Source: a virus. Taken from it: 64,000 bases of DNA. This document shows positions 9,301 to 41,057 of this stretch, piece by piece. Position 1 is the stretch's first letter; the number at the start of each line of letters is the position of its first letter. The DNA lies in IMG/VR virus record IMGVR_UViG_3300027763_000038, positions 44,771-108,770 of that record; one strand, given 5' to 3'. The notes below the pieces were generated by a model. That model saw nothing but the letters and a program-made list of their open reading frames with translations. It ran no database searches and was not told the origin of the DNA. A program made the translations under genes and the position numbers.

Positions 9301-11803
9301 AAAATAAAGAAGCTTGCGAGGAACCAACAACTATTGTATCATCTATAAAGTTACCTTCTTCTTCCCAGGCCCCATCAGTAGCTATTTCCCAATCGGTATA
9401 AAATCTACTACTAGTTGAATAAGCAAAACCTCCATAACTAACTGATGTCTCCCCATCACTATTACTAAAAGGAGACGTTTGATACCATCTCATTTTAGGT
9501 GTTTTCACCATAAATTTCTTACCATAGTAAGTATTACAAATATTTGCAAAAAAATCATGTATCTTTTTTAAATCTGCATATAATGATTGAACGTATGGCT
9601 GAGAATTTTCAATACTAATAGTATATGCTCTTGGTTCTTTAGTCTGAGTAACTGTACTTTTATTAACTGCATCCCAATTAATAATATTTAAACCAGCTAA
9701 AAAATCTCTTCTATTACCAAAAGTAGGATATTGAGCACAAAAAGCTGAATATATTAAATCTGCAATGTCTGTATTAAATATGTTGTCAAAACAATAAGAA
9801 AACCAAGCTTCAAATCCACCACCAGCTGATCTAATTTCATTTTCTAAAACTACAAACTCACCACTAGAGCCAAAAGATTTAGTTAATAAAGATGTAATAT
9901 CATTATTTCTAAAAACAATTTGTAACTGACCTGTCTTACGGTCTAAATATACTTTTCTCGGTTCATGCCAGTCAATAGCTGATGGTACTGTGGTTGTGGT
10001 AGTATCTTGACCATGGTAACCAAAATATGGACTAATTAAATCATTGTATAAAGGATAGCTTTCATTATTTGCAAAAGCAGGATTAGGATTACCTCTGTAA
10101 CGAGAAGCTGGATCTTGTTCTTCTGTAGGAAAATAATTTCCTCTATAAATATTCAAAGAGGTTCCAAAAGTATCTATAGTCTGAAATACGTCCCAATCAT
10201 TAATTTGACCAACTGCTGATCCGCCATCTGTAGAGGTTTGAGTATATCTAGTGCTACCAGCATCTGGTATTCTAAAATAATTTTCATAATTAGTACCAGC
10301 ACTAGTGGTGCCACCAAAATCCATAAAATGACCAACACCATTATTATAGTATGGATCAAAAACTAAACTACTCTGTTTAGAAGATATATGTACAGATTTA
10401 ACTTGTAATAATCTTTGCTGTTTACTTCCAATATACATGGATCTAATTTCTTTATCATTATATTCTTGTCCATATGTATAAGAACTCACTTTTGCTCCAG
10501 CACCAACTAAATTAGCTACTATTTTTTTAATAATTTCTCTAGGTGGTTGATTTCTTTTACTTACTGTACGAATGACAATAACTCCAGAAAAATTACCGAC
10601 TTCATTAGGATAATTACTATCTGGAAGTCGAAAATCCACATAAAAGTCAAAACCAGAACCATTGCATATTTTGCTTATAAAATCAAGTATACTAATAGTT
10701 GGACCAGTATTTAAAAATAAGTCATTAGGAGGTATCGGTAATTCACTTAAGTCTAATTTTAATTTTGTTCTTCTAACACTATCTGTTGCTAAAATATTAG
10801 GACATAAACCACATTCTTGCAGAGTCATAGTTTGGTGAGGAGTAGCATTTGTGCTGAATATTTGTTGACTACTAACATCAACAGGAACTCCACTCATAGT
10901 TAATGGATGTTTAGCAATAATTGCTCCATACGGAGAAAATGGGTTACTTATGCCTCCCGCTAAGTCTTGTAACGCATAATAAATTTGTAAAGCTGAAACT
11001 CCACTATCTGTTTTCCCAGCATATCCAAAGCCTTTGTTTTCTAAATATCCAAAAATATTAAATACATTTGGCATATTGCCCTTAACAATATCTGATGTAT
11101 AAACACCAGTAGTATTTGATGGAACAGCTATGTCATCATTAATTTCAGTTGATATTGATCCCATGTAGTCATCAATAATTAACCAAGACCCAGCTAGTAA
11201 ACTAGCATAACTTTTTAGTGTAACTTCAAATAAGCCACTACCGCCTTGACCACCATTAGCTTTCCAATCGGAAATCATTCCTCCAAAAGATATTCCGGGT
11301 GAAAACTTAAAAAAAGCTGGAGCACCAATAATGTCATAAGCATCACGAACCAAGCTACTATCTGGATCATATTTAGGTAGTCCTAAAAATCCTGGATCTG
11401 GATCAGTCCAGTTTTTTTTCACATTATTAGCATTATCCCAGTAAACTTTTCCAAGATCATTATATTGATTTTGATCTGCTATTTGTGGACTTATAGTTTT
11501 GAATAAATTTCTACCAGGATCAGCATCACTAAATGAACCATCTGTGTTTCTTCTTAGCGCTGTGGATCCTCGGTTAGTATTAGAATTAGTATTAGCTACC
11601 AGAGTGTTAAGTGGACCATATTTTGTTGAGGCCGGGTGATATGCAGGGTCTGATACTAAGTTAATTGTTATTGAACTAGCATCGGCACCCCATCCTAGAT
11701 TCATATTAAAACTAGTTAAGCTACATCCTAAAAATAATGTCTGATTATATGGCCCTACTTCTTCATATGATCCAGGACATGTAAACGGATTCTGTGGAGG
11801 CAT
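6335..11803 (-). CDS. Putative tail tip/baseplate hub protein (1822 aa) with a CxxC...CxxC motif
   Basis: Position downstream of TMP and Dit-like gene; beta-rich N-terminus (LGCSLTSFNMNLGWGADASSITINLV; FGGMISDW; ISKICNGSGFDFYVD) resembles hub proteins; CAFC/CPFC pair; AAGGA RBS. Confidence 0.55.
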   Translation of the reverse strand: MPPQNPFTCPGSYEEVGPYNQTLFLGCSLTSFNMNLGWGADASSITINLVSDPAYHPASTKYGPLNTLVANTNSNTNRGSTALRRNTDGSFSDADPGRNLFKTISPQIADQNQYNDLGKVYWDNANNVKKNWTDPDPGFLGLPKYDPDSSLVRDAYDIIGAPAFFKFSPGISFGGMISDWKANGGQGGSGLFEVTLKSYASLLAGSWLIIDDYMGSISTEINDDIAVPSNTTGVYTSDIVKGNMPNVFNIFGYLENKGFGYAGKTDSGVSALQIYYALQDLAGGISNPFSPYGAIIAKHPLTMSGVPVDVSSQQIFSTNATPHQTMTLQECGLCPNILATDSVRRTKLKLDLSELPIPPNDLFLNTGPTISILDFISKICNGSGFDFYVDFRLPDSNYPNEVGNFSGVIVIRTVSKRNQPPREIIKKIVANLVGAGAKVSSYTYGQEYNDKEIRSMYIGSKQQRLLQVKSVHISSKQSSLVFDPYYNNGVGHFMDFGGTTSAGTNYENYFRIPDAGSTRYTQTSTDGGSAVGQINDWDVFQTIDTFGTSLNIYRGNYFPTEEQDPASRYRGNPNPAFANNESYPLYNDLISPYFGYHGQDTTTTTVPSAIDWHEPRKVYLDRKTGQLQIVFRNNDITSLLTKSFGSSGEFVVLENEIRSAGGGFEAWFSYCFDNIFNTDIADLIYSAFCAQYPTFGNRRDFLAGLNIINWDAVNKSTVTQTKEPRAYTISIENSQPYVQSLYADLKKIHDFFANICNTYYGKKFMVKTPKMRWYQTSPFSNSDGETSVSYGGFAYSTSSRFYTDWEIATDGAWEEEGNFIDDTIVVGSSQASLFSDDDNKIQPILGFNANGDFASRDFWSQTYLATRNDPNSLTALMLAMSHSFGSVVDRSEYFYFPLDHSMQPDQYLYVPYQNPTISNLGLENVTNTLVGATLAPTTPHGEPIPSGWQFKMYVKSEVEPKVIFLKDIDDLYRPRAILSLPDPLYLGGGKSDAQDSLSYVQLHDALIIMNRGSAQPPNNRSRTNNSLKATSNPMNWKAILCAWGFSSTMKLIGGNHGISINNSAENVVIAKKATCPEFAAVPVKYNRYTYGPWINHPGLQGVSSLIFIPPDADNPYNQDALNNLVNNLVGGVKVNVQDDLVPWNYGGTNALDAVVMNIIKDDINYQQVTEQGSISAVGLLLKDPNGKSYSIGSVLKLTAEDTAGPIVTNFNVSLNNAGITSSYNMRTYVKKIGFFNKENSDRIRDTNLEFMKRRRDTNNSINSALNKIKSNIFPKSNNGLLGGADTPKPLRWSPFEILAGAAYPQLNFQSSIGDIYADLGFSPSWSKFPYSKNTSYNTKDMLRYLTNVSVQDIQELPRELKDDYSQKSFMSLDGLLSPISFYPTLYGSTYNITKYPRDNCAFCKGSGNYTWEKFDIPRDSGSQPSGFAGLIQLKSSQTDVCPFCETIDNKEKRAYKSSSPKQTNPPYILASGDDLTIISKNANTGQPSGETNQNTIINYSTLNPVLLATGEFSCFQNRQSGDLTGHSIDLVGLGMTVPETGNSLKFAYSSTIEKNFLDYDQNYIDHCAAKSIPGPTGASGCPANNARFFGLRGPLMVHAWGYDLEGFPVPNSSGEPKLDTNGEIVKDTSGNIIYKNQTQKPDQTWTEPYKENSFYKGWGQLPGTWPVGPVDLRWDDVAGVWVAGGNGYKPIWVVIETDLVGNQPSRGEIVDDSYSNQPLASGLRRLVFVKDPLGVNGAPRGAHVYCNYNGQNGFYEPIFNKPSMTSGIIRGANSVDMYNLYRNTSGTYLTTFSNPLDFNVNVGDAGLFTFMGSGWVLQSYRC

Positions 11804-13474: not shown

Positions 13475-16400
13475 CTAAACTGATCCGTATAGAGGATTAG
13501 CTCCAGGATGATTAAGCTGATTAACTCTAGCAGTAGCTGACCATAGAGCAGTCCATCCACCACCACCACTAGCAACTATACTAAGTCTTGGGATACTACT
13601 AGTATTTCTTATTTCTGTAGATAAGCTCATCACACTTGGCATAGTATCTCCATAGTATCTAACATTTTCATTACCAAATTTATAAAACTCAGTACCAGCC
13701 GCTGATCTATATACGCCACCCTCAATTTCATATGTTCCAGCAAATTTTCTAGGACCCTGTGGACCACCTTGTACACCAGACTGCCACAATACTGAAACAC
13801 TAATTTTATAACCCCAAACTCTATCATATTGAGCAGAGCTTAAACTATAAAAATCATTAAAATTAATACAATTATTTGAAGTTTCATCCGATATAACGCT
13901 ACTTTTTGACCAATTAGTAACTAATGGATTACCAACACCATTTGGTCCTGTTGTGCGAGTTCTTAGATAATACTGAACATATTGAGATGATCCATCATAT
14001 ACTCTGTTAACATCATTATGGTTAAATGAACCACCCGCAAATGAGTGACTATTATATGTGCTGGTTACTGAAGGTTTGTAACCAAAAGCTATACCAGGAC
14101 AACTTTGTGGATTACTTGTTTCTACTTGGGTTTGATATGCTTTAAGGCCGCTAGCAGTAACCCAGGCATAACCATTATACGCAACATATGCACCATCGTC
14201 TTTATCAGTAAATTGACTTCCATTAGAATTTCTTTTGGTAAAACCAAAATTAGTAATAAATGAACCATCTGCTCCTTGTGCAGTAGAGACGACATTGAGG
14301 GGGTAACTATTGCCGATAATATCAGTAGAGTATGCTGTGAACTGATTATTAATATCAAGATTGCTAAAACGAATATTTCCAGAAGCATCAGTTCTTAAAT
14401 AATATCCTGATGGAGCAGTATCATTTCCCACCTTCAATTCTGTTACCCATGCTTTACCATTTACATATAAAGCAGCTTTTGGATTATAGGTAGATAAATT
14501 AGCAGCAGGAGTATTTATAGCTACTGCTCCAGTTGGACTAATATGGAAACCTTTAAGTTCAATTAAGCCAGAATTTAAAACTGAAAACCTGTTACCTAAT
14601 CCACGATTATTAAATACCGTATCTACTTGTGAATTAGAGCTTAAAATTATGTTGTAGTAACTATCATATCCATTTGTTGGAACGGTGTCTTCTGTAACAT
14701 CAACGGATGCGCCCATAGCCATAACTTGCTGTGAATTAATCCAGCGAAGAGAGCTATTTCCAGTAGAATATGCAGCACTATTAGAAAATAGAAGAGTGTT
14801 GGGTCTGGTAACATAAGAAGATAATTTACCATTATTATTAACATACAAGTAAGTTCCAGTTAAACTAACTGGCAATGTTAATCCACTATTTAAACCAATA
14901 TTATGGAAATTACCAGAGTTACCACTAACATTATAAAAGTTAATTTTATGATTAACATAATCGGTATCAAATAATACTCTAGCAAAATCTACCCCACCAC
15001 TACCACGGATTCTTACTTTATATGTTGCTGCTTCATCATTTAAGAATAGTCCAGTACTATTAATATAAACTTCATTATATCCACCTAAATTAAATCCTAA
15101 TTGTTTGATAGTAGGATTATATGCAATCTCAGTAATACCACTAGCTCCCTTATCTGTAACCTTGAATAACATACCTCCATTATCACCAGATAATCTAACT
15201 GGTAGCTGCCATGTTCCAACACCATTAGTGTTAGTTGTTAGTACATAAGCGTCAGGAGCAGAAAAACCTAGTTTGAAATCTGTTGTAGTGAAAAGTCCAC
15301 TAACAGAAAGAGAGGACGTGGGACTATCTGTATTAATACCAACACGATTATTATTAAGATTAGCATTGATAACGCTGGTAGAATCTGAAGCAGACTTAAC
15401 AATAAGGTTTTGTTGTAGTTTACCAGAATTAAAGACAATCTTATAGTTATCAAGAATCATCTTATTGCTATTATTAGTTCCTAAATATATAGTATCATCT
15501 ACAACACCAGTCAAACCATAGCCGATAGCTATATTTCTAACACCAGATACATAATTATTATATCCTAAAATTAAACCACTACTAAAAGGATATTTGTTAT
15601 TGGATCCGACAACAATATTATTAGACCCGTAAACAGGATTCACCTCTGCTCCACCAGCCCCACCCATTCTTTGGTATGGCATAATAAGTCCACTAACAAC
15701 AGTAGACGCAGTATTATTATCATCAAATGCGTTATTCATATAGTAATAACCATTTGTACGATCAAGAATAATTGGAGTATCAAGTGTGATATAGGTTATA
15801 GGCTCTATGGTATCTTCAACAATAGCTGTGATAGTTCTTGTAAAAGTATTACTCACTGATGGAGGATTCTGAAAAGAAACTAATATTTTATCTCCCTGTA
15901 AATACTGGGCTAATAATCCTTTGGTTGGAATATTAATAACAGTACCGCCAACATCCGTCATTGTACAGGTATTTCTTGTGTAACCTAGAGTATTATTACG
16001 ACCATAAACAATATTATTTAAGCCGTCTAATTTATTTGAGGTTCCAACAGCGATACCATTATTAACAACTTGATTATATCCAAGAACAATATTACCACTA
16101 CCAAAAACATCCATTTTTTTATCAGCAGTATTGAAAACAATTGATTCTTGACCAACAAGATTAATTTTGCTACCTACTGTGCCTAATTGACTTCCAACTA
16201 ACGAATTAGAATTACCAACATTATAAGCGCTTGTGCTATTTTTAAGATTGTTATATGATCCTAAAGTATTGCTATTTGAACCTGATATAGCATTTTTATT
16301 ACCAACTACAATATGACTATTACCAGCATATACAACATTATTAATACCAGCAACTATAGAGTTGATAACAGTTCCGGCCGGTCTTTTACCTGATCCTGTT

Positions 16401-17842
16401 ATAGTTCCAACAGAATCAATATAAACCCCTGTCTGATTGTTCAATATACCGAGAACTAAATTATTTGTACTAGCTGATGAAACAGCATTAGTGTTGCCCA
16501 TAACTAAATTATTAGTAACAGATCCACTAATATTATTAGTATTGCCTAATATAACAGATCCAGTAATATTTTCAGTAATATTGGATTGACCAATCAATAA
16601 TATCTGGTCTGGAGTACCACTAGTTAAATTATTATTAATACCAATTAAAATACTTTGTGATAAACCATCTTTTGTATTAATATTACCCATACCTAAAAAT
16701 AATAGCTTATTAGAGTTAGATAGAGACATATCATTACCGATAAAAATACCACTAGTCATAGTATTTAAAGATTGATTTGATCCTATGGAGATTAATTTTG
16801 ATCCTAGAATAGAATCAGAACTACCATAAATATTATTATTGTCTCCAGTAACAGAAACTAATGACCCAACAACATTATTAGAATTACCAATTAAATTATT
16901 CAAGTTTCCTATGTATATGTTATTGTTGCCACTGTTGGTGGCATAGGCTCCAAAAATAATACCTGATGATCCGGTGTTTGAAGATAATTGGGTTAAACCA
17001 ATACTCATATCTCCATTAAAATTATTATTATCTCCCATCAAAATATTGTTTGATCCAGTAAGGGAGTTGGAGTTACCAATAAAAATATTGGATATGCCAG
17101 TAATGGCTACAGTATCACCCATAGCAATATTGTTAGCTCCAACAAATTTAGAATTATTAACCAGAGCAACAATTTTAGAACCATTAATAGTATTAACACT
17201 ACCAATAATTAAACCACTATTAGATAATCCACTATTATATGCTCCGATACTTGTGATACCCACGCCGGTCACAGCATTATTACCACCAACGACAGTGTAT
17301 GCATAACCAGAAACGCTATTGTTACCGCCCAACACTACATTCTTAATATTAGCCCTAAAAACGGGAGTATTGGTACCGCGATTATCAACAGTAAAAAGAA
17401 TTTCGCCACTAGTATAGCCAGTGATAGGATCTAATATCTTAGAGATAATTTGTCCATAGGCAATTTCATTATAACTAGTATCTCTACCAGCCAAATTAAT
17501 AGTAGCTGGTAAACTTCCTGATAGTGGTGTTGTTTGGGGATTATGAACTAATAATAGAGTAACCCCAGTAGGACAATTTGTTACGCTTTCAACAATTAGA
17601 CCATCTTTAGAGCATGGAGCAACAACATGCAGAATAGCATCTGGTACACCCGTACCAATACCTAATCGTCCAGTTGAGGCATCAAAATACATCAAGCCAT
17701 TGCCGGTTCCTTTAATGCTAAAATCAATATCTAGCTTATTAATATTAAAAGAGCTAGCGACACCAGAGGTGTTTGATAGTTTTATATCTGGTGTTGTACC
17801 AGAACCAATATTTAGTATACCGGAAATTGTTGTGTCAGCCAT
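13475..17842 (-). CDS. Tail fibre/spike with long Gly-Asn beta-helix (YadA-head-like) repeats (1455 aa)
   Basis: GRLGIGTGVPDAILHV and RVGINTDSPTSSLSVSG fibre motifs; long run of (I/V)G.NN repeats; start overlaps the TMP stop. Confidence 0.75.
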   Translation of the reverse strand: MADTTISGILNIGSGTTPDIKLSNTSGVASSFNINKLDIDFSIKGTGNGLMYFDASTGRLGIGTGVPDAILHVVAPCSKDGLIVESVTNCPTGVTLLLVHNPQTTPLSGSLPATINLAGRDTSYNEIAYGQIISKILDPITGYTSGEILFTVDNRGTNTPVFRANIKNVVLGGNNSVSGYAYTVVGGNNAVTGVGITSIGAYNSGLSNSGLIIGSVNTINGSKIVALVNNSKFVGANNIAMGDTVAITGISNIFIGNSNSLTGSNNILMGDNNNFNGDMSIGLTQLSSNTGSSGIIFGAYATNSGNNNIYIGNLNNLIGNSNNVVGSLVSVTGDNNNIYGSSDSILGSKLISIGSNQSLNTMTSGIFIGNDMSLSNSNKLLFLGMGNINTKDGLSQSILIGINNNLTSGTPDQILLIGQSNITENITGSVILGNTNNISGSVTNNLVMGNTNAVSSASTNNLVLGILNNQTGVYIDSVGTITGSGKRPAGTVINSIVAGINNVVYAGNSHIVVGNKNAISGSNSNTLGSYNNLKNSTSAYNVGNSNSLVGSQLGTVGSKINLVGQESIVFNTADKKMDVFGSGNIVLGYNQVVNNGIAVGTSNKLDGLNNIVYGRNNTLGYTRNTCTMTDVGGTVINIPTKGLLAQYLQGDKILVSFQNPPSVSNTFTRTITAIVEDTIEPITYITLDTPIILDRTNGYYYMNNAFDDNNTASTVVSGLIMPYQRMGGAGGAEVNPVYGSNNIVVGSNNKYPFSSGLILGYNNYVSGVRNIAIGYGLTGVVDDTIYLGTNNSNKMILDNYKIVFNSGKLQQNLIVKSASDSTSVINANLNNNRVGINTDSPTSSLSVSGLFTTTDFKLGFSAPDAYVLTTNTNGVGTWQLPVRLSGDNGGMLFKVTDKGASGITEIAYNPTIKQLGFNLGGYNEVYINSTGLFLNDEAATYKVRIRGSGGVDFARVLFDTDYVNHKINFYNVSGNSGNFHNIGLNSGLTLPVSLTGTYLYVNNNGKLSSYVTRPNTLLFSNSAAYSTGNSSLRWINSQQVMAMGASVDVTEDTVPTNGYDSYYNIILSSNSQVDTVFNNRGLGNRFSVLNSGLIELKGFHISPTGAVAINTPAANLSTYNPKAALYVNGKAWVTELKVGNDTAPSGYYLRTDASGNIRFSNLDINNQFTAYSTDIIGNSYPLNVVSTAQGADGSFITNFGFTKRNSNGSQFTDKDDGAYVAYNGYAWVTASGLKAYQTQVETSNPQSCPGIAFGYKPSVTSTYNSHSFAGGSFNHNDVNRVYDGSSQYVQYYLRTRTTGPNGVGNPLVTNWSKSSVISDETSNNCINFNDFYSLSSAQYDRVWGYKISVSVLWQSGVQGGPQGPRKFAGTYEIEGGVYRSAAGTEFYKFGNENVRYYGDTMPSVMSLSTEIRNTSSIPRLSIVASGGGGWTALWSATARVNQLNHPGANPLYGSV

Positions 17843-20800
17843 TATTTTCTCCCTAAAGCGCCTTCTGTTTGATCACTAAGAGTACCCATAGCTCTACCAA
17901 CTTCTGCAACAACCATGTTACTGATTGCTGTTTCACTGAGCTGCTTTAACACTTCTGCTCCATTAAATACTACTTCAACTTTATGATTACCCATAACATT
18001 AATAACTGGTGGTAAGTTTATTGCTTTTAATTGGCCAATAAATTCTGCAAATTTTGTCGTAAACTGGCTTAATCCATCCATATTGGGTGAGGATGAGCCT
18101 CCACTATTAGATACACCACCACCAGCACCAGATTCATCAGTCATTCCACCATTAGCTAAATACTTAACGCTACCACCACGACTATATCGATTATTGTTTA
18201 TAGCTTGTAATAAGGGAAGATTTTGCTGGGCTGATGCTCGGTTAACAACAAACTCGCCCGGTGTTAACATAGCAGGAACAGTATCGCTTCCCCTTGGAAT
18301 ATAAGGAATCATCATTCCATGGTTAGCATAAATCATTCCACCGTATTGTTTATGAGTTGGTTCGGTGGTTGGAGGTGGGGGTGTTTGTTCTGGTTTTTTC
18401 TCTCCTGCAACTGAATTACCAGAAGCTTGTGATGCTTGTCCAGACATTATTTCGGGATGTTTCTTAAATAATATTCGCCATCCAGCATCAATAGCATCGC
18501 CTTCTATTTTTGCTCTTGCTTGACCATTAAGTATATCTAAAATACTCTTACCATTAACTCCTATTTTGCTAGCTTTTGGATCACGCTTTAAAATTGTATA
18601 AGCCTGTAAAGAATTATTGTAAATTGTTGTTAAATACTTATGTCTTTGTGTGTCTATGTCATATTGTTTTTTAGCATTAGTTTTAATTTCATCAGCTGAT
18701 AGTTTACCCCATACTGACCAATATTTGTCTGCTAATCCTTCAGCAGTTAATGACTCATTTATTGCATCTGCTTTTAAAGCATCAAACATTTGTGGACTAG
18801 TTTCAGCTTCATTTTTAATTTGTAAGATTAATGAGCCAGTTTGAGTTTTAGCGAGTGATCTCTCCATAATTATTTTTTGTTTTTCTTCTTCTGTTGGCGG
18901 CTGTGATCCTTTTGGGACACTACTAGATGCACCTGCCATATCGGCCCAACCGCCGCCTTTAGCATATATGACTCCTCCCTGAGAATAAGCTTCAGTTTTA
19001 CCATTATTAATGGCTTTTAATAGAGGTAGATTTTTTTGTGTGGCAGCTCTGTTTACTACAAATTCTCCGGGTGTCAACATTGCTGGAACAGTATCTGTTC
19101 CTTTTGGTTCATAAGGAATCAACTTGCCTGTCTGTGCATAAATTACTCCGCCAGAAGCTTTATATTCTGGTTTAAGACTCAAAGGCCCGAGCACTTTACC
19201 ATTGCTATATTTAAAATCCTGCGGTAAAATACCAGGAACAATTGTTGCATTTCTTTGATAAATCTCTTTTGCTCCTACTTCATTATAATATGTCTCTCTA
19301 AATTTATTAGGAAAGTCTATTCCACCAAGCTCTTCTGGAGATACTGCAACTAAATCATTAATATTGGTAAAAGGATTGTTTTTTAATTTAAATCCTATAT
19401 CTTGACCAAGCTGTTCTAATGCATCTATTAGATCTTGATGTCCAGATTGTTGTAAGTCATCAACAGATGCTTTACCTCTAATAAAATCAGCTTCAGCTTT
19501 AGCTTCAGGATTTTTTGATATCAACTCTAACAGAGTAATATTCAAAGCTTTAGCTGTATTTTTAAGTTTTTCTTCTGTTCTTTTGATATATTGTGATTTT
19601 ACAGATATTAATTCTTCTCTGAATTTTTTAGCAGCCTCTATTGCTGCTTTTTGTTTGGGTAAATTATCTACTATTTCTTTTAGATAATTTTTTCTATCTT
19701 CTACATTTTGTTTATTATTATATTCTTTGTTATTTTCTTTGTTTTGTTCTGTTCTCTCTTTTGATTCTTTTCTTATTTGTGCATCAGATTTTTCTACAAC
19801 AGTTATAAGTTTTCCATCTTTGCCTCTTATGGTACTTGCTACTTCTCCATTTTCTTTTCTTTGTTGTCCCTGTTCTGTTAAAGATCTTCCTTTTGGATCT
19901 TGCGGATCTGGATCATTTAAGCCTTTAAATTCACTACCACTTATTGCTAATAGTCTTTCAAATGCTGCTGTTGGTCCACCATCTTTCAGATATACTACTC
20001 CACCAGAGGAATAACCCTTACTATCACTACCACCTCCACTATTAATTGACTTTAATAAATCAAGATTATTTCGTGTAGCCTTAGCATTAACAACGAATTC
20101 GCCAGGAGTTAGCATAGCAGGAATAGTATCTGTGCCGCGAGGTTGGAAATTAATTAATTTGCCTGTACTAGCATAAACTGGTCCACCATTGTCAAATCCA
20201 TATGCTTTCATTATCTTTTTAAGTAATTCTTTTGCTAAACTATTCTTTGAAAACTCACTAGTTTTCATAGATTGTATAATATTTGTAAATACTTCTCTAT
20301 TATCATCTACTAACTGTTGACCACTATAAGGAGAATTAGTAACCTCTTTTAAAGGAGCCCATCCTTTTGGATCTAGAGCAAAATTTTGAATATCTGGTTT
20401 CAAACTATCTAATACGTCTGTCTTCATAAACATATTATTTTTATCTTGTAAAGCATGTCCCAATTCATGTTTTAATAGTTCTGGATCTTGATTTTTACTA
20501 GAAATTTTCTTTGTTGTTGCATCATATTGTGCATCATATTTAGGAGATTGACTATTGGGTTCAAATGATTTTACTCCAAATTGTGCGTCAGCATATTCTT
20601 TTAATTTTTTCTTACCTTCTTCACTACTAGTATATGGATATAATTGTTGAGCTAGATCAGAACTTAATCCTTTAATTAAACCTCCTGTAGAAGCATATAT
20701 AACTCCACCCTTTTCTCTATATTGTGGAGGTAATGGTGGTGGTCCTTTTGGTGGTAACGGAGGTGGTCCTCCTGCTTGTCTTGGAAGTGGAGGTGGACCA

Positions 20801-29800: not shown

Positions 29801-32800
29801 TGTGTTCGTCTAGCTCCAGCACCAGCCCTAACTTCTGCTTCTACTTCTTCATCTGTTAATGTTCCAGCTGCTGTTGCTGCTGCTCTAGCAGTTACTGTTA
29901 ATCTTTCAAGCTCTTCGTCCACCATGCTCAATGCTTCTTGTATCTGTCTGCCATTAACATTGCCTAGTTGTTGTCTTATTCTAACTTCATTACGAGCTTC
30001 TTGCTGAGATTGCTGTAATGCTCTTTGTAGATCATATAATACTGTGGCACTAGCTCCAGCTGCTCTGGCCATTAATATATCAGCATTATAAGCTCTTTCT
30101 GCTTCTGCTGCTGTGGCCTGATATCCTCTTCTTAATAATTGACCAGAACGTGATGATGCTACTCCAAGTTCTGATAATACTTCAGCTAGTTCAGAAAGTC
30201 TTTGTGCTGTATTTCCACTAACTCCTATAGTTTCTGTATTGACCGTATTTGGTCGTGCTGCTGGACCAGCCCTACCACCAAAAAATAGTCTTTGTACAGC
30301 ACCTCCTGTGGCAAATTCTTGGACTCCTCCTACTAATCCACCACTATTAAATCCAGATACTTTATCTGCATGGTTTAGTCTATTAAGAGTTGGTGTTCCT
30401 ATTCTACTGGCAGTCTTTTTATTAATAACAAACTCGCCAGGAGTTAATAGTGCAGGAACAGTGGTGTTTATAGAGCCTCCAGCAGCCTTCCTGTTTAATG
30501 AACTTAGTTTATTTGCTCCGATAGTTTGTACTGCTTTTTTACGAATAACAAAGTCACCAACATTCAAATTAGCAGGAACCGTGTCTTGACTGCCAACTCC
30601 AGGAACTAATCCACCATCGGCGTATCCTCTAGCTTTAAGATAATTACCAATTTGACCTTTTAGTTCAGCAGGGCCGTTGAGTGTTAGTTTAGCATCAGTG
30701 GGGATATTTGGTGGAAGTTTGAAGTATTTAGAAGCATCCTTAAGACCGTCTGGGAAGTCGATACCATAATTAGTAGCAGCTTTATTAGCAATTGGTCCAC
30801 CAAGCTGATGTATAATACTTTCAGCTATATATCCATGAGCATTAGCCTCACCCATTTTTTTACGATCAGAAGCCTTGACCTTTTTATTTGCATAATGATA
30901 AACATTCATTCCTGCTGCTCTTGCAGCATCAATATTTCTCTTATCATCATCAATAAAGGCACCTGGGTTAGCCTGCATATATTCAACTTTAAGTTGAGCA
31001 ATTTTTTCAGCAGTATTATCTGGACCACCAACGCCTTCAAGGTTGCGTATTGGAAGATTCTTACTAGCTAACCATTCACCAATCAAACCCATAGTATTTT
31101 TTGGTCTGGCAGAAATCACATGTAAATTATCAAGTAACTGTGGGGTTTTTCTAACTTGAGCAACAAGAGCTAGTCCTAATTTACTAAGTGTAGCATTTTT
31201 TAAAGCATCCCTTACTTTATCTTTATCAGAAAATTCACTAAATCGTGGTTGTTTTGGATCAGCTAAAATTTTGTCAGCACCAAAAGCTAATGTTCTATCA
31301 AAGTCAGAATATATAGGTCCAACTTCTTTCAAAATCTGCCTGATCTGCATATTTTTAGTTGATTTTGCTGAAACAGCGTTCATTGCTTGAGTCATTCTCT
31401 TAATATCTTTTCCAGCAGCTTCTTTATCTAGAACGCCACTAGTAATTCTAACCTTAACTGGATTTTTTAATCCCGGAATTTCCATTCTATCAGTTGTGGG
31501 AAAAGCTCTTCCTTTGAATCCAGCGGCCCCAAACAAAAGACCATCTGTAGTTGCTTTTTGTATATCAAGATTATTTGCTTTTTTAATACCAGAAGTTTTC
31601 TCTGTATATTTTGCTAAAATTTTATCTTTGATAACTTGTTCTGATGGAGTTAATGAATTTCTTTTCTTTAATATTCTTTGTATATCACCAGCATTTGATC
31701 CAGTGTCTTTAATAACTTCATCTAGAGTAAGAACTCTGAATATATCTGTAGAAGTAGCAGCTTTACCTGATGTTGGTGTTACAATACCAGCATCAACAAA
31801 TTTACGAACTGAACCACCACTGTTAAATCCTGGTACTTTATTTTTTTGTTGCGTTTGTATCCAGCTATAAAACTTATCTTTTTGATTAGCTTCCCAAAAA
31901 TAATCTAGATTACCTAAGAAAACATTAGGATCTTTATCTTTTTTATTATTCTCTTTAAATAATCCATTTTTACTTCCTGCAAATCCAACCTGATTTTTAT
32001 CAATTCTATATCTCAACATTTTACTAACCAAATCGATATCTTCAGTATCACTAGTTTTGAACTTAGCCTCACCAATTTTTTGTATAGCCTGATTTTCAGC
32101 TTTTTGAATTAGATCAACAGGATAATTAGTTTTATTACTAGCTGATTCCCAACCCTGTTTTAATTTAGAGATTATTAAAGTTTCATATGCTTTTCCCCAA
32201 CGATTTTCTGCGCTTCCTAGTTTACCTACCTCAGTTTCTTTCTCTGACACCGCCCTTTTTCTGTTCTTTTGATTTTTAGAAGATTGGATAATATCATCAA
32301 GCTTTGCTCTGTTCTCTCCGCTAACATCGACACCAGCATAGCTTTTATATCTTTTAGAGGTTGAGGCTTTTTCTGATGCCATATCCCAAATCTTTTTAAA
32401 GTCCGCAGGCTTTAAATCTATTGATCTTGGGACTATTCTAATTTTTGCTGAGTCCCCAACTGCTTCTATATTAGTTTTTCCAATAGCTTTCTGGATTGTG
32501 GATGATCCATCTCTTGTTAGCAATTGATCAATAGTATAAGACTGAGTCAATCCACCATTACTAAATTTTTGTATTCTACCACCATTTGCTTTATTAAGCC
32601 TATGAAGATTGTGAGCACCAATAGCTTTAACAGCACTTTTACGGATAACAAATTCACCAGGAGTTAATCTTGCAGCAATACTATCAGAATCTCCTTGACC
32701 GGGTACCAAACCACCAGTAGCAAATCCTGGGGCATTATTTCTTCTGCCTCCTCCAGTAAAACCTCTACCAAAACCACTAGCAAATTGGGTAATAGCTGAA

Positions 32801-34293
32801 GCACCTTTAACAGCGGCGAATAGTGTTATGATTGGTAAAAGTTCTTTAGCAGCATCGGCAACTTTAATGAAAGCATTAGCTAAACTCAACCCTACTGTTA
32901 CCATCTTCTGAAAACTATCAGTATTTCCAACACTACGAATGAGTGTTAAAAATTCTTCTCTAGTTTTGGATATTTGGACAGCTAGTGCTAACTGACCTTT
33001 AGCAGCGTCTGTGGCTAAAGAGCCTTGTCCAGCTTGTGCGATCTTTAATGCATCTTGTGCTGTGGTAAATTCTTGAATCAATGGAATAACTTTACCAATT
33101 TGTCTAAAACCACCAAGTTCTTCTACTATATTAGAAAATTTAAGATCTCTGGGATCTATTTTACCTAAGCCTTCACTTAATAATTGAACAGCTTTATATG
33201 CTCCTACAAATTTACCATCTAGATCTGTTAGATTAACACCATATTCTTTCAAGGCTTCAATAGTGTCACCTCTTTGAATTCTGGTAAAGATTGTTCTTAA
33301 GCCAGTGGCAATAGTTTCAGCACTTTCTCTGGTTGTTGCTCTAACGCTGGTGAAGACCGCAATGAATTCATTAAGAGCATCTTTGCCTTCACTTACTCCT
33401 TTGCTAGCTGCGGCAAACACACCACCGGTACGCTGAATAGCAGCAATAATATCACTAGATTCCACAGCAAATCTTGCTGATACAGCATTAATGGAACCTA
33501 ATGCTTTTTCTAGATCATTAGCTCCAATTTTAAACTGTCTCATTAAAGCAATAGAACCTTCTACTGTTTGATTCATATTATCAAAAGACGGGGTCAAAGC
33601 ACTCAAAGCCAAAGCATTTAATGCTATTTCGGTTTCTTTAGCGCTTAAACCAGCTTGAGATAATGTTACTGCAACAGTAGCTAAATCTTTAGCTGCGACA
33701 CCCAACTGACCAGATAATGAAGCTATAGTTACCTGTAATTTACCTAAATTTTCTTTACTTTCACCAGTAACTTGAGAAATACGAGTTATTTGTTTATCAA
33801 AACTAATAAATTCTGAAATACCGCTCTTGATAGCCCCAACTAATCCATAGATTAATACGGTAGAGCTACTAAATGCAGCAAAACGTCTAACAGCCAAACC
33901 AGCTTGATTACCAAATTCTTCTATCTCGGTTCTAGAGCCAGCGATAGCTCTTTGTGATGCTCTAGCAGAAGCTTGTACTCCTTGCAAAGCAGCAGATATT
34001 TGCCCAGCATGATTAGGCATACTTACAGCAGCAACACCCCTCATTGCATTCATCATATCTCTCATAGCGTTAGCAACATTTGTTGCCGAAGAAGCTGTTG
34101 TTGTGAGAGTAGAATTAAGATTATTTAAAGAAGAGTTTAAACCGGCAATTACTTGAACAGTAGCTGGGTTTATCTTAAGATTAACATTAGCAGAGATCGT
34201 ACCTAATTGTTTTTTAATGTTAGATACAATAACATTAACATTAGATGGTCCCTGTAAATTAATTTGTGCTGTTAAATTAAATCCTTTAGACAT
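17842..34293 (-). CDS. Giant tape measure protein (5483 aa) with repeated GG...TPGEFV modules and embedded enzymatic domains
   Basis: N-terminal TP901-type TMP core (ITRISQVTGES...LSQAGLSAKE...ESAETIATGLRTIFTRI); long Ala/Gln-rich helical regions and hydrophobic segments; position after tail tube and chaperone-like genes; GAGG RBS. Confidence 0.92.
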   Translation of the reverse strand: MSKGFNLTAQINLQGPSNVNVIVSNIKKQLGTISANVNLKINPATVQVIAGLNSSLNNLNSTLTTTASSATNVANAMRDMMNAMRGVAAVSMPNHAGQISAALQGVQASARASQRAIAGSRTEIEEFGNQAGLAVRRFAAFSSSTVLIYGLVGAIKSGISEFISFDKQITRISQVTGESKENLGKLQVTIASLSGQLGVAAKDLATVAVTLSQAGLSAKETEIALNALALSALTPSFDNMNQTVEGSIALMRQFKIGANDLEKALGSINAVSARFAVESSDIIAAIQRTGGVFAAASKGVSEGKDALNEFIAVFTSVRATTRESAETIATGLRTIFTRIQRGDTIEALKEYGVNLTDLDGKFVGAYKAVQLLSEGLGKIDPRDLKFSNIVEELGGFRQIGKVIPLIQEFTTAQDALKIAQAGQGSLATDAAKGQLALAVQISKTREEFLTLIRSVGNTDSFQKMVTVGLSLANAFIKVADAAKELLPIITLFAAVKGASAITQFASGFGRGFTGGGRRNNAPGFATGGLVPGQGDSDSIAARLTPGEFVIRKSAVKAIGAHNLHRLNKANGGRIQKFSNGGLTQSYTIDQLLTRDGSSTIQKAIGKTNIEAVGDSAKIRIVPRSIDLKPADFKKIWDMASEKASTSKRYKSYAGVDVSGENRAKLDDIIQSSKNQKNRKRAVSEKETEVGKLGSAENRWGKAYETLIISKLKQGWESASNKTNYPVDLIQKAENQAIQKIGEAKFKTSDTEDIDLVSKMLRYRIDKNQVGFAGSKNGLFKENNKKDKDPNVFLGNLDYFWEANQKDKFYSWIQTQQKNKVPGFNSGGSVRKFVDAGIVTPTSGKAATSTDIFRVLTLDEVIKDTGSNAGDIQRILKKRNSLTPSEQVIKDKILAKYTEKTSGIKKANNLDIQKATTDGLLFGAAGFKGRAFPTTDRMEIPGLKNPVKVRITSGVLDKEAAGKDIKRMTQAMNAVSAKSTKNMQIRQILKEVGPIYSDFDRTLAFGADKILADPKQPRFSEFSDKDKVRDALKNATLSKLGLALVAQVRKTPQLLDNLHVISARPKNTMGLIGEWLASKNLPIRNLEGVGGPDNTAEKIAQLKVEYMQANPGAFIDDDKRNIDAARAAGMNVYHYANKKVKASDRKKMGEANAHGYIAESIIHQLGGPIANKAATNYGIDFPDGLKDASKYFKLPPNIPTDAKLTLNGPAELKGQIGNYLKARGYADGGLVPGVGSQDTVPANLNVGDFVIRKKAVQTIGANKLSSLNRKAAGGSINTTVPALLTPGEFVINKKTASRIGTPTLNRLNHADKVSGFNSGGLVGGVQEFATGGAVQRLFFGGRAGPAARPNTVNTETIGVSGNTAQRLSELAEVLSELGVASSRSGQLLRRGYQATAAEAERAYNADILMARAAGASATVLYDLQRALQQSQQEARNEVRIRQQLGNVNGRQIQEALSMVDEELERLTVTARAAATAAGTLTDEEVEAEVRAGAGARRTQAFENVNASGVLTGVGGGVDLAGIGATGDDLERTMMALMRDADTLDQMNQEYIRQRRHAMAEEARLDGNLARAARIRAGLERDVEQVISAEVRARRQAVEEAARSAGSRDTGTRDRNNGNRGLLMAGGIITVGSLISQQMDTKASAGQASAAAGLNTASQSAGVAIGVISQLQDFEQHLRDAGTEVGDMGANAVRAGRRLLMVGSFIFTAVSVIKDMTNAMNEFKLEVESKKLEFAMKGVEQEFEVLRKDVKNLDFTRLNNKLEAASTAFANQINILSTRTLYTFTNLFDALATFTGNGVGGEEGLRQRSDILRLGGSQAYYRASNSAEDTNVEFNKIIPQLAQEQAAMGRALGDSLLESFKERAKRGESVKDITSDPNFDKFSESLANADAVIRQKILEVENSGLGNAQINSIKESIIKNAGEEKARQQVNIVLREKEAQALQRSTYAFTGSLNRMFKNMEQAISATSNALDSMQKSIDANIASLTGSAALQNINSQTSNIISNPRAYSRASVSQAQSTGAGFFGQSSGLVKSLLKVGETAENTIMKTINDTVQQNPEANDEIIGSKITTNVNKALKDLGLPPEFVDKLSGQIGKAIADLRKSGDDKISFGDLQEKVAGLSSTLDTAKGVSDIVVKALDHFNSALNTYSSNINKIIDLEISSREKLRKAEDILINSGVELSKVFGESINLEKSRARTQARVGRFTGGVTDPDKIFNQILKLNTEKNIAESSRAQAGERGAAGAEDFAKFSKDVQNNSIALRESYNALRFLADNTENASEAMQKIQDVQQRNAGKVSFIEKLATATPDEAASLGNALNRLQKNINGQINTINSSTGAQKAYFEALQSGASGFEAMRAAQTAFANERKETLGALQDIMPFLGEGRQASNVRANVLESMLKESGMGISPMMMDVLNNLRNPQADPAVAAAMTYYNEAIALQSSANEHLANIDQHLAQDTTEANAKALATALSDVTLTFFNQQLVDIAANINNLVPVKPQARAAGGIIYAEAGQMVNFQPKGSDTVPAMLTPGEFVVNKKATANNRSLLESINSHKYSSGGSVRYYDRGGFVHDAGDPSDFTKSSSISQIKLLNLNTPNVINDLLKAQNKLYNTPSVYTFLDSRKQTPEPTKDNYDLKDLEPTAGVVVPGFGPIIGRKNNKEVDYQRDPAEEALLNRFSAIKSDDTFFHINSLDKGSFGTTNIKELNFEEYKRKAAENNIKWELPKFDLPNNYGPVPNITDFKLNIPDAFSSNIISNPYGIIVPDEAGGMPTLDVATNRMYQIYEATNGGVKENAISIDPPFFQAPVGAAPGSSLAGLDFKPKGSIVGRNLVMNNLTKNIISHDKIADLKIKNDEAYAEYEKTRDFLNAPTFKEDTVIDEDAKHALEIQAQLSKVYNGNSIGEIIKGKTLIEKYFPTIKGVENAGSLMILQDSATEAINKLIMEYAANPIAAKDKNIVFSGKNLKKPAIGDFVKDVPINIFSVDKAGAMDLPAKPFPYIVNASLEDLDADLRKKIEKELTAKNPGGISMKRLPPETLSIPVNDLLNSFNIQKQFKDTLSLNGQNLDFKVSYDEWEGKLFKPDTNEFNPHISKYLLPAKNDKTFFESLDISKRRITTNGVNRFTGQELLQSIADGSNVGNVTTNLTDYIKLIVNGGKDNGERQKLLDSLSSKFKGSFIKSQDMTFPDVDTLITPFDRDSITTFNVGKHILEALDAAKIQAAEGSDQIEGKALGNQGVGDADLPKAVRATAKGALSIFGRAKVPGLSNSWLSRYIGKIPNMVNLKPSGAKNMAAYASGVMEQFGAYLSNIGTKSNNPNQYQGLKELWTLASGASQAFSGLANGNSSLFGQFVASDLKLIDLFRSLGAGTLMRRITGLALNDDWKNLLANTAKGKSRKVGINSLGKQKELSEDNLPTTLQELIDLVFNPYTEFDDSDTRFVLMDKLVNDLSNFKEGIGIPYFDRNTMAFISKNVQSLEKWYHGDGDKWLGQDYLFDKKLKPEARIPAFFDSASDNSFTDIYQEANDAQVTLGLGSKFGRLPSPNWFRARVAQGLQTGGMVYAANGGQMIQFQPRGTDTVPAMLTPGEFVINRKATQENLPLLKAINQGGNPKALSKGGVIYAQDGTQVPSLSVNGGVSIPTVISGNEFKTVDYNTNIKLQQKAKQEAQSKMLQQYQKDMELFEQSLQEDINNLVTSKSSPEMDKDTRFLASKKIISYYETIKKRNKEILFVSGRDGLLGTGDDIVPEQEMSLDDLSLKYSMLGLTPGVGIPFDVAAAVVDVMRGDLTGAGLSLASTVEGVGQVAGAAKIAAGVKAATAAKAATAAMAGVGLFATLKKFKPLKSDAVLDAIKTQTAKNMPAGLNTDELKALSELQTKIKNGGLDLSSAADITKQFDIAKNTTGATSAFAKMIDSIKTLAIQGDLGDAAKVVDDISGAKGGIFSTITKNIAGRLKSGALLLGGGVAGATLFSGGIHKYNTAAEARHKLDPETVKAATADATVVNGIPAGDPGRARAPVPAGGPAPAAKPQTPQEKIDAIIREFQFPKIRLGKQTQADLNKVKDPIKRLNMYENKAKLLRADPNLEYRSMGGLIYAQDGMLVPGSRLMDPRLVQQNQNYMPEMTPTQGELDFANQQAKLQTQQAKITTDNSGRQWHTPEGEISAYGPPPGPGLMGESLYQRAGAAWGMFTAVAGAARSKGGARGKGQKSAARTLPPKPKSATNTAVQQKVAELTKRKAQVQSEVTTINQKIKEATDRRKALLGDNKEKDLLEGIHDGRETFGSKLSFRDTKYTLTRDKVNTDLLLKDFARATGKQVTQSTVQSDEFLAYIKSAILEPLAKTPEELIARQSRGLIVNGIKQDGKLTLEDIQKFAKDPEGISRLDQQIRGGNSDAHMIMGPGGTINTGRNFGNTKEVDMLYRALENGNLDHVQGVTPALRKSLEQTLLFQQIRVEEAQIKAFKTQVRSLESQISNIEAGINQGNQLLNPPEQAPAVAVPPKPLPPPPPPLRNGPPPLPRQAGGPPPLPPKGPPPLPPQYREKGGVIYASTGGLIKGLSSDLAQQLYPYTSSEEGKKKLKEYADAQFGVKSFEPNSQSPKYDAQYDATTKKISSKNQDPELLKHELGHALQDKNNMFMKTDVLDSLKPDIQNFALDPKGWAPLKEVTNSPYSGQQLVDDNREVFTNIIQSMKTSEFSKNSLAKELLKKIMKAYGFDNGGPVYASTGKLINFQPRGTDTIPAMLTPGEFVVNAKATRNNLDLLKSINSGGGSDSKGYSSGGVVYLKDGGPTAAFERLLAISGSEFKGLNDPDPQDPKGRSLTEQGQQRKENGEVASTIRGKDGKLITVVEKSDAQIRKESKERTEQNKENNKEYNNKQNVEDRKNYLKEIVDNLPKQKAAIEAAKKFREELISVKSQYIKRTEEKLKNTAKALNITLLELISKNPEAKAEADFIRGKASVDDLQQSGHQDLIDALEQLGQDIGFKLKNNPFTNINDLVAVSPEELGGIDFPNKFRETYYNEVGAKEIYQRNATIVPGILPQDFKYSNGKVLGPLSLKPEYKASGGVIYAQTGKLIPYEPKGTDTVPAMLTPGEFVVNRAATQKNLPLLKAINNGKTEAYSQGGVIYAKGGGWADMAGASSSVPKGSQPPTEEEKQKIIMERSLAKTQTGSLILQIKNEAETSPQMFDALKADAINESLTAEGLADKYWSVWGKLSADEIKTNAKKQYDIDTQRHKYLTTIYNNSLQAYTILKRDPKASKIGVNGKSILDILNGQARAKIEGDAIDAGWRILFKKHPEIMSGQASQASGNSVAGEKKPEQTPPPPTTEPTHKQYGGMIYANHGMMIPYIPRGSDTVPAMLTPGEFVVNRASAQQNLPLLQAINNNRYSRGGSVKYLANGGMTDESGAGGGVSNSGGSSSPNMDGLSQFTTKFAEFIGQLKAINLPPVINVMGNHKVEVVFNGAEVLKQLSETAISNMVVAEVGRAMGTLSDQTEGALGRK
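18150..32730 (-). repeat. Eight dispersed protein-level repeats (GG...[GS]DTVPAMLTPGEFV[VI]N..A...N..LL..IN) within the TMP
   Basis: Copies at approx. 32580-32730, 30480-30630 (degenerate, NLNVGDFV), 30330-30480, 26600-26810, 23450-23670, 19975-20200, 18950-19165, 18150-18350. Confidence 0.93.
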
Positions 34294-40124: not shown

Positions 40125-41057
40125 TTACCAGCTATAGTGGGCTATTCTGTGCCATAGATTAGTAGCGACACATAGATATAAATAATTTGAATCCCAACAG
40201 ATTTCTCCTGCAATTCCTTGTGAGAAAGAGGCTGGTGGAGTTCTAAAAGGAAACTGATTCCATCCTATAATATCAGAAGTGGGATGATGATGACCAGACA
40301 GAGCATAGTTACCAACAGGTTGAGGAGTATAACTTAATGCTCCTGTTACGTCAGGAAAAGAAAGATTAACTATTCCTGTTCTATTATTAAAAGATACCAC
40401 TCCGCTATTACCTACTGAACTAATAGTAATAGTATTACTTCCATTATCATAATCTACATTAGTATAACCACTACCTAAAATATTTAAGCGATCATTACTA
40501 GTATAGTCCATTCTATTAGTAAGTCCATCTCCTATATAAAAGGTATGAATATGACCACTAATAGCATAGTTTCCACTAGCTTGTTTGTTATCTAATATTC
40601 CAGATAATCCATTAATTTCTGATATAGTGTGATTATGACCAGAGAAACTATAGTTTCCAGATCTCTGTGGCACATATCCTAATCTATCAATGATATTAGT
40701 AGCAGTAAGAAAAGATGATCCTGCTTGAGTATTAATAGTCATTGTTCTACTAAAAGGATTAAACTTCACTTCGGTATCACCAGACCCTACAACATTCAAA
40801 TAATCTCCACTAGATAAATTTAAGTTTATTCTAGGTTCAACTCCATCATAAACAGAAAACGAAATATTTGGATATGATATTGAAGATGGGTGGACTTTCA
40901 TATAGTCTAACCCCGACCATGCTGATAATCCATCTCCTATCTTGAGTCTTTTTGAATCAGTTTCGTATCCTGGTTCTCCTAATCCCAAAATAGGATTAGT
41001 AGAAAACCATTCTCCACTTGGAGCTCTTCTTAATCTTATTCTTTTATATTCACTCAT
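40125..41057 (-). CDS. Short fibre/decoration protein with Mtd-N/hyaluronidase-N-like anchor and HxH repeats (310 aa)
   Basis: RIRLRR...NPILGLGEPGYETDSKRLKIGDG N-terminus; three GNY.[FIL]SGHxH repeats; C-terminal GEICWDSNYLYLCVATNLW. Confidence 0.7.
   Translation of the reverse strand: MSEYKRIRLRRAPSGEWFSTNPILGLGEPGYETDSKRLKIGDGLSAWSGLDYMKVHPSSISYPNISFSVYDGVEPRINLNLSSGDYLNVVGSGDTEVKFNPFSRTMTINTQAGSSFLTATNIIDRLGYVPQRSGNYSFSGHNHTISEINGLSGILDNKQASGNYAISGHIHTFYIGDGLTNRMDYTSNDRLNILGSGYTNVDYDNGSNTITISSVGNSGVVSFNNRTGIVNLSFPDVTGALSYTPQPVGNYALSGHHHPTSDIIGWNQFPFRTPPASFSQGIAGEICWDSNYLYLCVATNLWHRIAHYSW

Follow-up and report, generated by a model that had tools for sequence, protein, structure and literature searches.

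The eight-copy module described here lies in a single protein encoded in a 64,000-nt window of viral DNA (positions 44,771 to 108,770 of IMG/VR record IMGVR_UViG_3300027763_000038, a single contig of 108,770 bp with ~33% G+C), and in our best reading it is an ancient junction element specific to tail tape measure proteins (TMPs), placed at the border between the body that fills the tail tube and the distal parts that are expelled first. The protein is the product of one uninterrupted open reading frame (ORF) of 5,483 amino acids (aa) and 591 kDa at window positions 17842..34293 on the minus strand, the strand of all features given below. A PhageMin_Tail/TP901-type TMP domain was found at aa 190-382 (33148..33726; PF10145, 77 bits with a cut-off of 33.2, E 2.3e-21), and matches to TIGR01760 (82.2 bits, cut-off 28.8) and to several TMP PHROGs likewise identify the ORF as a TMP.

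A profile of the copies delimited three N-type and five C-type modules of ~60-80 aa, whose domains together cover window positions 18142-32736, matching the coordinates of the original prediction, which had listed eight copies with flanking GG motifs. The N-type copies are module 1 (aa 520-589, 32527..32736; 66 bits with the module profile and 94.9 bits with the N-type profile), module 2 (aa 1219-1277, 30463..30639), and module 3, in tandem with module 2 (aa 1276-1331, 30301..30468). The C-type copies are module 4 (aa 2491-2565, 26599..26823; 111 bits), module 5 (aa 3541-3617, 23443..23673; 122 bits), module 6 (aa 4695-4773, 19975..20211; 117 bits), module 7 (aa 5040-5116, 18946..19176; 122 bits) and module 8 (aa 5310-5384, 18142..18366; 111 bits). 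Given scores of 111-122 bits per C-type copy, a chance origin is excluded. The PGEFV core occurs seven times, at aa 544, 1284, 2525, 3575, 4729, 5074 and 5344, and module 2 carries a degenerate NVGDFV core at aa 1246. When the module profile was run against the six-frame translation of the whole 108.8-kb genome, no ORF matched besides the TMP.

We read each module as a GG-h-h-Y strand, then a beta-hairpin built around DTVPAMLTPGEFV, a single helix and another GG motif. In the C-type copies, the layout reads GG-h-[IV]-Y-A, then P-[KR]-G-[ST]-D-T-[VI]-PAMLTPGEFV-[VI]-N, then a helix ending in L-L-x-x-I-N, and then the second GG-h-h-Y, with GG-x-[IV]-Y-[AL] motifs bordering the copies on both ends. 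The N-type layout contains GG-L-V-P-G and a K-x-A-V-x-x-I-G...L..L-N helix, and the finding of the IG...L..LN helix in all three N-type copies supports their earlier assignment to a second subtype. Two or three stand-alone GG-h-h-Y half motifs were also present, of which two, of the form GG-h-h-Y-A, lie at aa 4076-4090 (GG at aa 4079; 22024..22068) and at aa 4526-4541 (GG at aa 4529; 20671..20718). The second N-type position is often occupied by a tandem pair, as seen here (30301-30639), in a Nodularia phage TMP (aa 915-953 and 986-1023), and in the loci L005, L024, L029, L041, L046 and L073; such pairs raise the prospect that modules may act in pairs.

The copies are conserved as protein and not as DNA. 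Over an ungapped block of 35 aa, the five C-type copies share 66-86% identity at the protein level and 63-75% at the DNA level, and they use the same codon at just 9-15 of their 22-29 identical residues, while the 10-mer PAMLTPGEFV is identical in all five, which agrees with the earlier description of their cores as near-identical. At the DNA level, a repeat finder recovered a 51-nt core eight times at 61-76% identity and a 133-nt unit five times at 68-71%. The core is nearly invariant over 75 copies from unrelated contigs. Because the amino-acid core is invariant while the codons differ, selection acts on the protein, as the claim of strong selection in the original prediction had it; on this pattern the copies are old and kept by purifying selection on the protein, rather than recent duplications or products of gene conversion.

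The module is not peculiar to this phage or to this protein. An exhaustive profile search covering 1.84 billion cluster representatives returned 12,889 protein clusters at E<=1e-3, of which 3,612 passed E<=1e-10 and 756 passed E<=1e-30; as many as 11-12 stretches were matched within single proteins of 7,794-7,872 aa. A word-indexed search confined to lengths of 143-2,000 aa yielded over 2,583 matches, and many of these proteins held two to four copies. In IMG/VR, the module is present at more than 555 loci, and the TMP ORFs of the 71 loci examined span 2,000 to more than 6,700 aa with 3-8 copies each. Among cultured phages it occurs in 685 records, chiefly TMPs of Mycobacterium and Gordonia phages and of Nodularia siphophages. 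Prophage-like loci with the module were found in bacterial genomes of Nostocales, SAR202, Verrucomicrobia, Acidimicrobiia, Bacteroidia, Gammaproteobacteria, Lachnospiraceae and Leifsonia, that is, in Cyanobacteria, Chloroflexota, Verrucomicrobiota, Actinomycetota, Bacteroidota, Pseudomonadota and Bacillota, and this breadth of hosts favours a constraint internal to the tail over a host-specific partner. A C-type core also sits on a 490-kb contig binned as archaeal (L082, CAVWAD010000004.1, from the metagenome-assembled genome of an uncultured archaeon), which might reflect an error of binning or else an archaeal virus.

Neither Pfam nor NCBIfam has a model for the module, and a protein atlas yielded no family for it either. 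The lead from the atlas, PF09718 (Tape_meas_lam_C), was considered and rejected, as it matches none of the modules even at E<=10 and covers lambda aa 627-701, upstream of the module there. TMPs are a known kind of protein, and enzymes carried by TMPs have been published, as has one giant TMP with a fused enzyme; in the searchable literature we found no description of the junction module or of a family of cassette-bearing giant TMPs built on it, and a search for the motif strings returned nothing relevant. With a model of its own, more than 12,000 protein clusters would be better annotated.

The positions of the copies follow a recurrent architecture. Ordinary PF10145 TMPs of ~1,900 aa carry two weak N-type copies, near aa 450 and at aa 700-850, and one strong C-type copy that ends ~90-100 aa before the C-terminus. 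Across 138 high-scoring representatives, the median distance from the last copy to the C-terminus is 146 aa (5th-95th percentile 95-258). For a cassette map, 124 giant TMPs were cut at their modules and the 737 resulting pieces clustered, and a common scheme emerged: F1, an N-type module, F0, an N-type module, F0 (~1,100-1,200 aa), a C-type module, F3 (~970 aa), a C-type module, then variable cassettes each followed by a C-type module, and finally a conserved tail, F2. The variable cassettes fell into 56 families and 167 singletons, and one and the same family, such as F7, F8, F14 or F19, follows different neighbours in different phages. The stretches between copies in the present TMP belong to different cassette families, in keeping with the earlier remark that they are unrelated in sequence. 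Lack of correlation between copy number and cargo, which the original prediction had named beforehand as part of its refuting test, was not observed, and the prediction is not refuted on this count: the number of C-type copies increases with the length after the first C-type copy, that is, the cassette-bearing part (Spearman 0.66, p 1e-18; 138 representatives).

Widely conserved in this TMP are the N-terminal part, a ~1,160-aa segment that runs from the last N-type module to the first C-type one (26824..30300), segment B and the last 99 aa; what lies between the second and fifth C-type copies is rare or mosaic. The ~1,160-aa segment, which we read as the ruler, is conserved over its full length in 44 relatives, and a spacing of ~1,000-1,200 aa between N-type and C-type modules recurs across the family; by amino-acid composition, the ruler segment was not separable from the cassettes. 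The 99-aa tail (17845..18141) stands at the extreme C-terminus in 63 relatives and is probably the hub-binding end, by analogy with the C-termini resolved in the TMPs of lambda, T5, JBD30 and Douge. Against the closest relative, the 4,878-aa P0131, identity is 91% in the N-terminus, 90% in the ruler, 73% in B, 51% in Ca, 58% in D, 50% in E and 83% in the tail, while in the modules it stays at 82-97%. A 600-aa stretch (Cb plus a cassette with an HExxH motif) is missing in P0131, and its bounds are the lone GG motif at aa 4079, with which it begins, and the GG of module 6. Because cassettes vary between modules in the cassette map and identity to P0131 jumps at the modules, these comparisons mark the modules as cassette borders in evolution. 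The earlier suggestion of a recombination point for cargo shuffling stands in part: the protein architecture supports it, with module-bounded cassettes shuffled between relatives, but the copies within this gene, at 61-76% DNA identity, are too diverged to recombine easily with one another.

The cassette between the second half motif and module 6 (20212..20691) contains the HExxH motif HELGH (aa 4609-4613, 20455-20469), and L035 has a homologous cassette. Such motifs are present in 44 of the 124 giant TMPs, against 0.004 expected per protein given that His makes up 0.38% of residues, an enrichment of ~100-fold, and the recurrent types are few, for example LYHE[LM]THQL and AHE[ST]FHDIQGYL (P0123-P0257). 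Zincin-like cassettes are therefore common TMP cargo. Within the cassette between the N-type modules (30890-31325, aa ~990-1135), a weak NCBIfam match to HAD-IA was noted at aa 1111-1134 (TIGR01509, E 0.005). Natural gene fission at modules was considered and rejected, because ORFs that begin within a module or immediately ahead of one mostly reflect starts set by the gene caller on truncated contigs; nor does the one related TMP split into three consecutive ORFs in different frames (L002:3302-16185; 2,932, 805 and 541 aa) qualify as fission, given that its frame breaks, whether assembly errors or real frameshifts, lie away from the modules.

For the working of the module, meaning cleavage, docking and delivery, we infer the following scheme. 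In ordinary TMPs, one C-type copy would part the tube-filling body from the last ~100-150 residues, which would plug into the tail hub. In the present lineage, the unit of cassette plus C-type module has been reiterated, so that the distal third of the TMP strings together exchangeable inserts, with a copy fencing off each of them. Within every copy, the GG motif at the N-terminal end, [KRYFLM]-[SA]-x-G-G-h-[VI]-Y, would be the point at which the assembled TMP is cut during tail maturation, by analogy with T5 pb2, which is cut there (R1127/AEGG...), and with lambda gpH, which is cut somewhere in the corresponding region. Cutting would turn the distal cassettes into individual polypeptides that are expelled before the DNA, and the hairpin-helix part would serve as a docking piece within the tube or hub. 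If only the five C-type copies were cut, the predicted fragments would measure 267, 115, 124, 38, 29 and 18 kDa. We tentatively take cutting at the GG motifs to be the most likely function of the module.

TMP cleavage has been on record since the 1970s-80s for T5 and lambda and has lately been suspected in myophages. T5 pb2 is cut after R1127 into pb2* and pb2C, as mapped by mass spectrometry (PMC10038345). R1127 occupies position -3 of R-A-E-G-G-M-M-Y, the sole match to the pattern in pb2, so that position -3 precedes the cut and position -2 follows it, in a GG-M-M-Y motif in keeping with the family consensus; in 206 distinct GG-h-h-Y contexts, this consensus has K/Y/F/R/L/M at -3 (94%), S/A at -2 (78%), G-G, h, V/I, Y, A, and G at +8. 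The next ~25 residues of pb2 can be aligned to the first half of a C-type module, but the GEFV core is lacking there, and the stretch is termed a metallopeptidase motif in the literature. In the present TMP, the strict pattern [KRYFLM]-[SA]-x-GG-h-h-Y is found at two N-terminal borders of C-type copies (aa 2496 and 5045), at three C-terminal ends (aa 3605, 4761 and 5103) and at the lone motif of aa 4076; the remaining three N-terminal borders of C-type copies keep K, L or F at -3 but not S/A at -2.

The second link is to lambda gpH. An N-type profile built from 91 copies of this phage lineage alone matched gpH 725-806 with 34.4 bits, whereas the best of 4,000 shuffles reached 9.1 bits, and BLASTP gave E 2e-4; the same profile matched residues 887-947 of the TMP of Arthrobacter phage ArV2 with 30.7 bits, close to where a cut of that protein is presumed. 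Judged by such matches, the module is homologous to the element in the lambda, ArV2 and Douge TMPs, and more weakly so to that in JBD30. The maturation of gpH to gpH* releases gpHC, a fragment of ~14 kDa, and both the cut site and the protease are stated to be unknown (PMC12617516). Residues 725-806 fall in the unresolved N-terminal part of gpHC. The single lambda copy is N-type-like (FATGG ... GEFVFTKEA ... ATGG, aa ~731-785) and stands just after the glycine-rich region of the cut, ~70 aa before the hub-binding residues 818-849, the same place relative to the C-terminus as the last copy here. Unlike the present TMP, gpH has no cassettes, carries a PF06791 N-terminal domain in place of PF10145, and has a copy that shows neither the GG-h-h-Y nor the DTVPAML feature of the C-type. 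Together with the T5 motif, the lambda and ArV2 matches lend indirect support to the earlier proposal of a protease recognition or autoproteolytic site.

Further observations speak both for and against cutting. A cut at the -3/-2 position would yield 79.8 and 12.5 kDa from lambda gpH, for which the literature gives ~78 and ~14 kDa, and 95.4 kDa from the ArV2 TMP, for which ~100 kDa was observed in the virion against 128 kDa predicted (PMC4205034); these fits are compatible with the published estimates, but they place the cut only to within ~20-40 residues. The pattern arose in 7 of 20,000 shuffles of pb2, a statistic that is somewhat post hoc because the T5 motif had been noticed before the pattern was written. 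The T5 link holds at the motif level only: the profile score of pb2 was -2.4 bits and hhalign gave P 0.037 and a probability of 1.4%, which are not significant, and this profile-profile comparison is weak because the homologue search for pb2 returned only sequences at least 95% identical to T5. At the position equivalent to the T5 cut, P1' is Ala in 36%, Ser in 42% and Asn in 8% of cases and Ala in T5 itself, and P1 is variable; classical self-cleaving chemistry of the intein/Hedgehog, Nup98/PIDD HFS, SEA or Ntn type is not evident from the motif, where P1' does not conform to a nucleophile. Pfam and NCBIfam scans of the TMP identified no protease, and a built-in zincin was rejected as the universal processing enzyme, as the HExxH cassette is found in only the 44 giant TMPs mentioned above. 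Giant enzyme-bearing TMPs need not be cut, as gp96 of Thermus phage P23-45 is full-sized in virions (PMC10770324), and for JBD30 the authors' purely predicted cut was placed after the module and not before it (PMC11445458). As to the kind of enzyme, a JAB or deubiquitinase-like cut after a Gly-Gly pair was considered and discarded, since the T5 cut falls before the pair.

A bolder version of the cutting scheme, which we regard as unlikely, would make the module a self-contained maturation switch triggered by tail assembly and common to lambda, T5 and thousands of uncultured phages: every GG-h-h-Y would be cut on completion of the tail, and giant TMPs would be virion polyproteins that release changeable enzymes (zincins, phosphatase-like and nuclease-like cassettes) into the host ahead of the DNA. 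Separately from such a switch, thousands of giant TMPs with shuffled distal cassettes would make phage tails capable of delivering a changing load of proteins. The conserved motif at the T5 cut and in the lambda cut region is a concrete, mutable target in model phages.

The main rival to cutting is that the module remains uncut and acts structurally: only within the TMP trimer or hexamer would each copy take shape as a hook or oligomerisation knot, which would dock in the lumen of the tube or in the opened hub, keep the cassettes in register and tether the expelled TMP to the tail tip. AlphaFold2 gave a pLDDT of 57.7 and a pTM of 0.26 for a C-type copy with an alignment of 75 sequences, the helix alone being confident; for the last module together with the C-terminal tail, modelled from 50 sequences, it returned helices only, at a pLDDT of 63.3 and a pTM of 0.22. 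The claim of a small folded module is thus not supported for the monomer, in which no autonomous fold was obtained; a monomer unfolded save for one helix is what would be expected of a segment whose folding depends on the TMP oligomer or on a partner, while an alignment that is too uniform might also be the cause. A profile search of the PDB found no resolved structure of the module, and the TMP residues built in cryo-EM maps are 1658-1699 for Douge and the last 33 for JBD30, which leaves the module copies unresolved in both. The authors' AlphaFold2-multimer model of JBD30 shapes residues 1022-1066 into a hook, with two helices and one short hairpin, which is proposed to anchor the TMP in the baseplate (PMC11445458), and these residues fall inside the module match at 1013-1086 (E 0.021). 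The 43 residues of T5 pb2 directly before the cut anchor in the opened hub, and P23-45 gp96 stays full-sized, which also suits a hook. On the other hand, the tube and hub partners of the TMP diverge greatly and the neighbouring genes match no family, yet the 19-residue core is almost invariant; moreover, a hook would leave unexplained why a lone GG half motif suffices at some borders and why the motif coincides with the T5 cut. We rate an uncut hook as somewhat less likely than cutting. Cutting and docking are not mutually exclusive.

A tail assembly chaperone or the growing tube might instead bind each copy as a loading signal, keeping the adjacent cassette unfolded and threaded into the lumen, comparable to the N-terminal cargo packing signals of extracellular contractile injection systems. 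One copy per cassette, a copy number that follows the length of the cassette-bearing part, and a module that is not an autonomous fold would all be in line with such a signal. By contrast, minimal TMPs devoid of cassettes still have three copies, and the chaperones of lambda are believed to cover the whole length of the TMP and not one site, which makes a loading signal a rather remote prospect.

More doubtful still is an active element directed against the cell envelope, muralytic or membrane-inserting and repeated for dose. Its appeal lies in T5, where the stretch resembling the module's first half bears the 'metallopeptidase motif' credited with muralytic activity (PMC10038345), and in the wall-degrading motifs known in TMPs; the module, however, has neither His nor a metal-binding pattern, matches no enzyme family in Pfam, NCBIfam or PDB sequences, and is conserved across hosts with very different envelopes, all of which renders this improbable. 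Finally, although cassettes are shuffled between relatives exactly at the modules, the idea that the copies persist only as shared sequence for cassette swapping, with no role as protein, is very improbable and appears largely refuted by the contrast of codon and protein conservation, with DNA identity at 61-76%, synonymous sites scrambled and the protein core invariant, and single-copy TMPs such as lambda gpH retain the module.

The gene order around the TMP gene would fit a tail block, with large putative tail-tip genes after it and small chaperone-sized genes before it, but these neighbours match no PHROG, Pfam or PDB family. Other late genes of the genome are very large and almost without database matches. 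Giant late genes lie at 44966-57331 (4,121 aa), 2-6328 (more than 2,109 aa), 6335-11803 (1,822 aa) and 13475-17842 (1,455 aa). A PHROGs and Pfam scan of three late proteins (1,822, 1,455 and 544 aa) yielded no significant match, and the 1,455-aa protein had a weak beta-roll (ice-binding-like) match alone. Upstream of the tail block, a collagen-repeat, tail-fibre-like protein (43796-44950; PF01391 and tail-fibre PHROGs) and a Laminin_G_3/ConA-like lectin protein (41054-43510) are probably host-recognition parts.

Beyond lambda and T5, the closest parallels among studied phages are the TMPs with N-type-like copies near the C-terminal part, of which JBD30 gp46 (a weak match, E 0.021) and ArV2 gp15 have one each and Douge gp16 has two; these proteins are short (1,158-1,699 aa) and, unlike the TMP described here, carry no strings of cassettes. 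In size, the nearest counterpart is gp96 of Thermus phage P23-45 (also P74-26, G20c and TSP4), a giant TMP of 5,002 aa with a fused virion RNA polymerase that is delivered through the tail, but there the enzyme is N-terminal and the protein is reported as full-sized in virions (PMC10770324). In working, though not in membership, the giant TMPs built on the module are reminiscent of MARTX-type autoprocessing toxins, in which exchangeable effector cassettes are carried in one giant polypeptide and shuffled between relatives, with processing proposed at the joints. MARTX toxins possess a dedicated cysteine protease domain, whereas the Pfam and NCBIfam scans of this TMP matched no protease family and hence no such processing domain, and MARTX toxins are secreted by bacteria, whereas the TMP would carry its cassettes as part of the virion.

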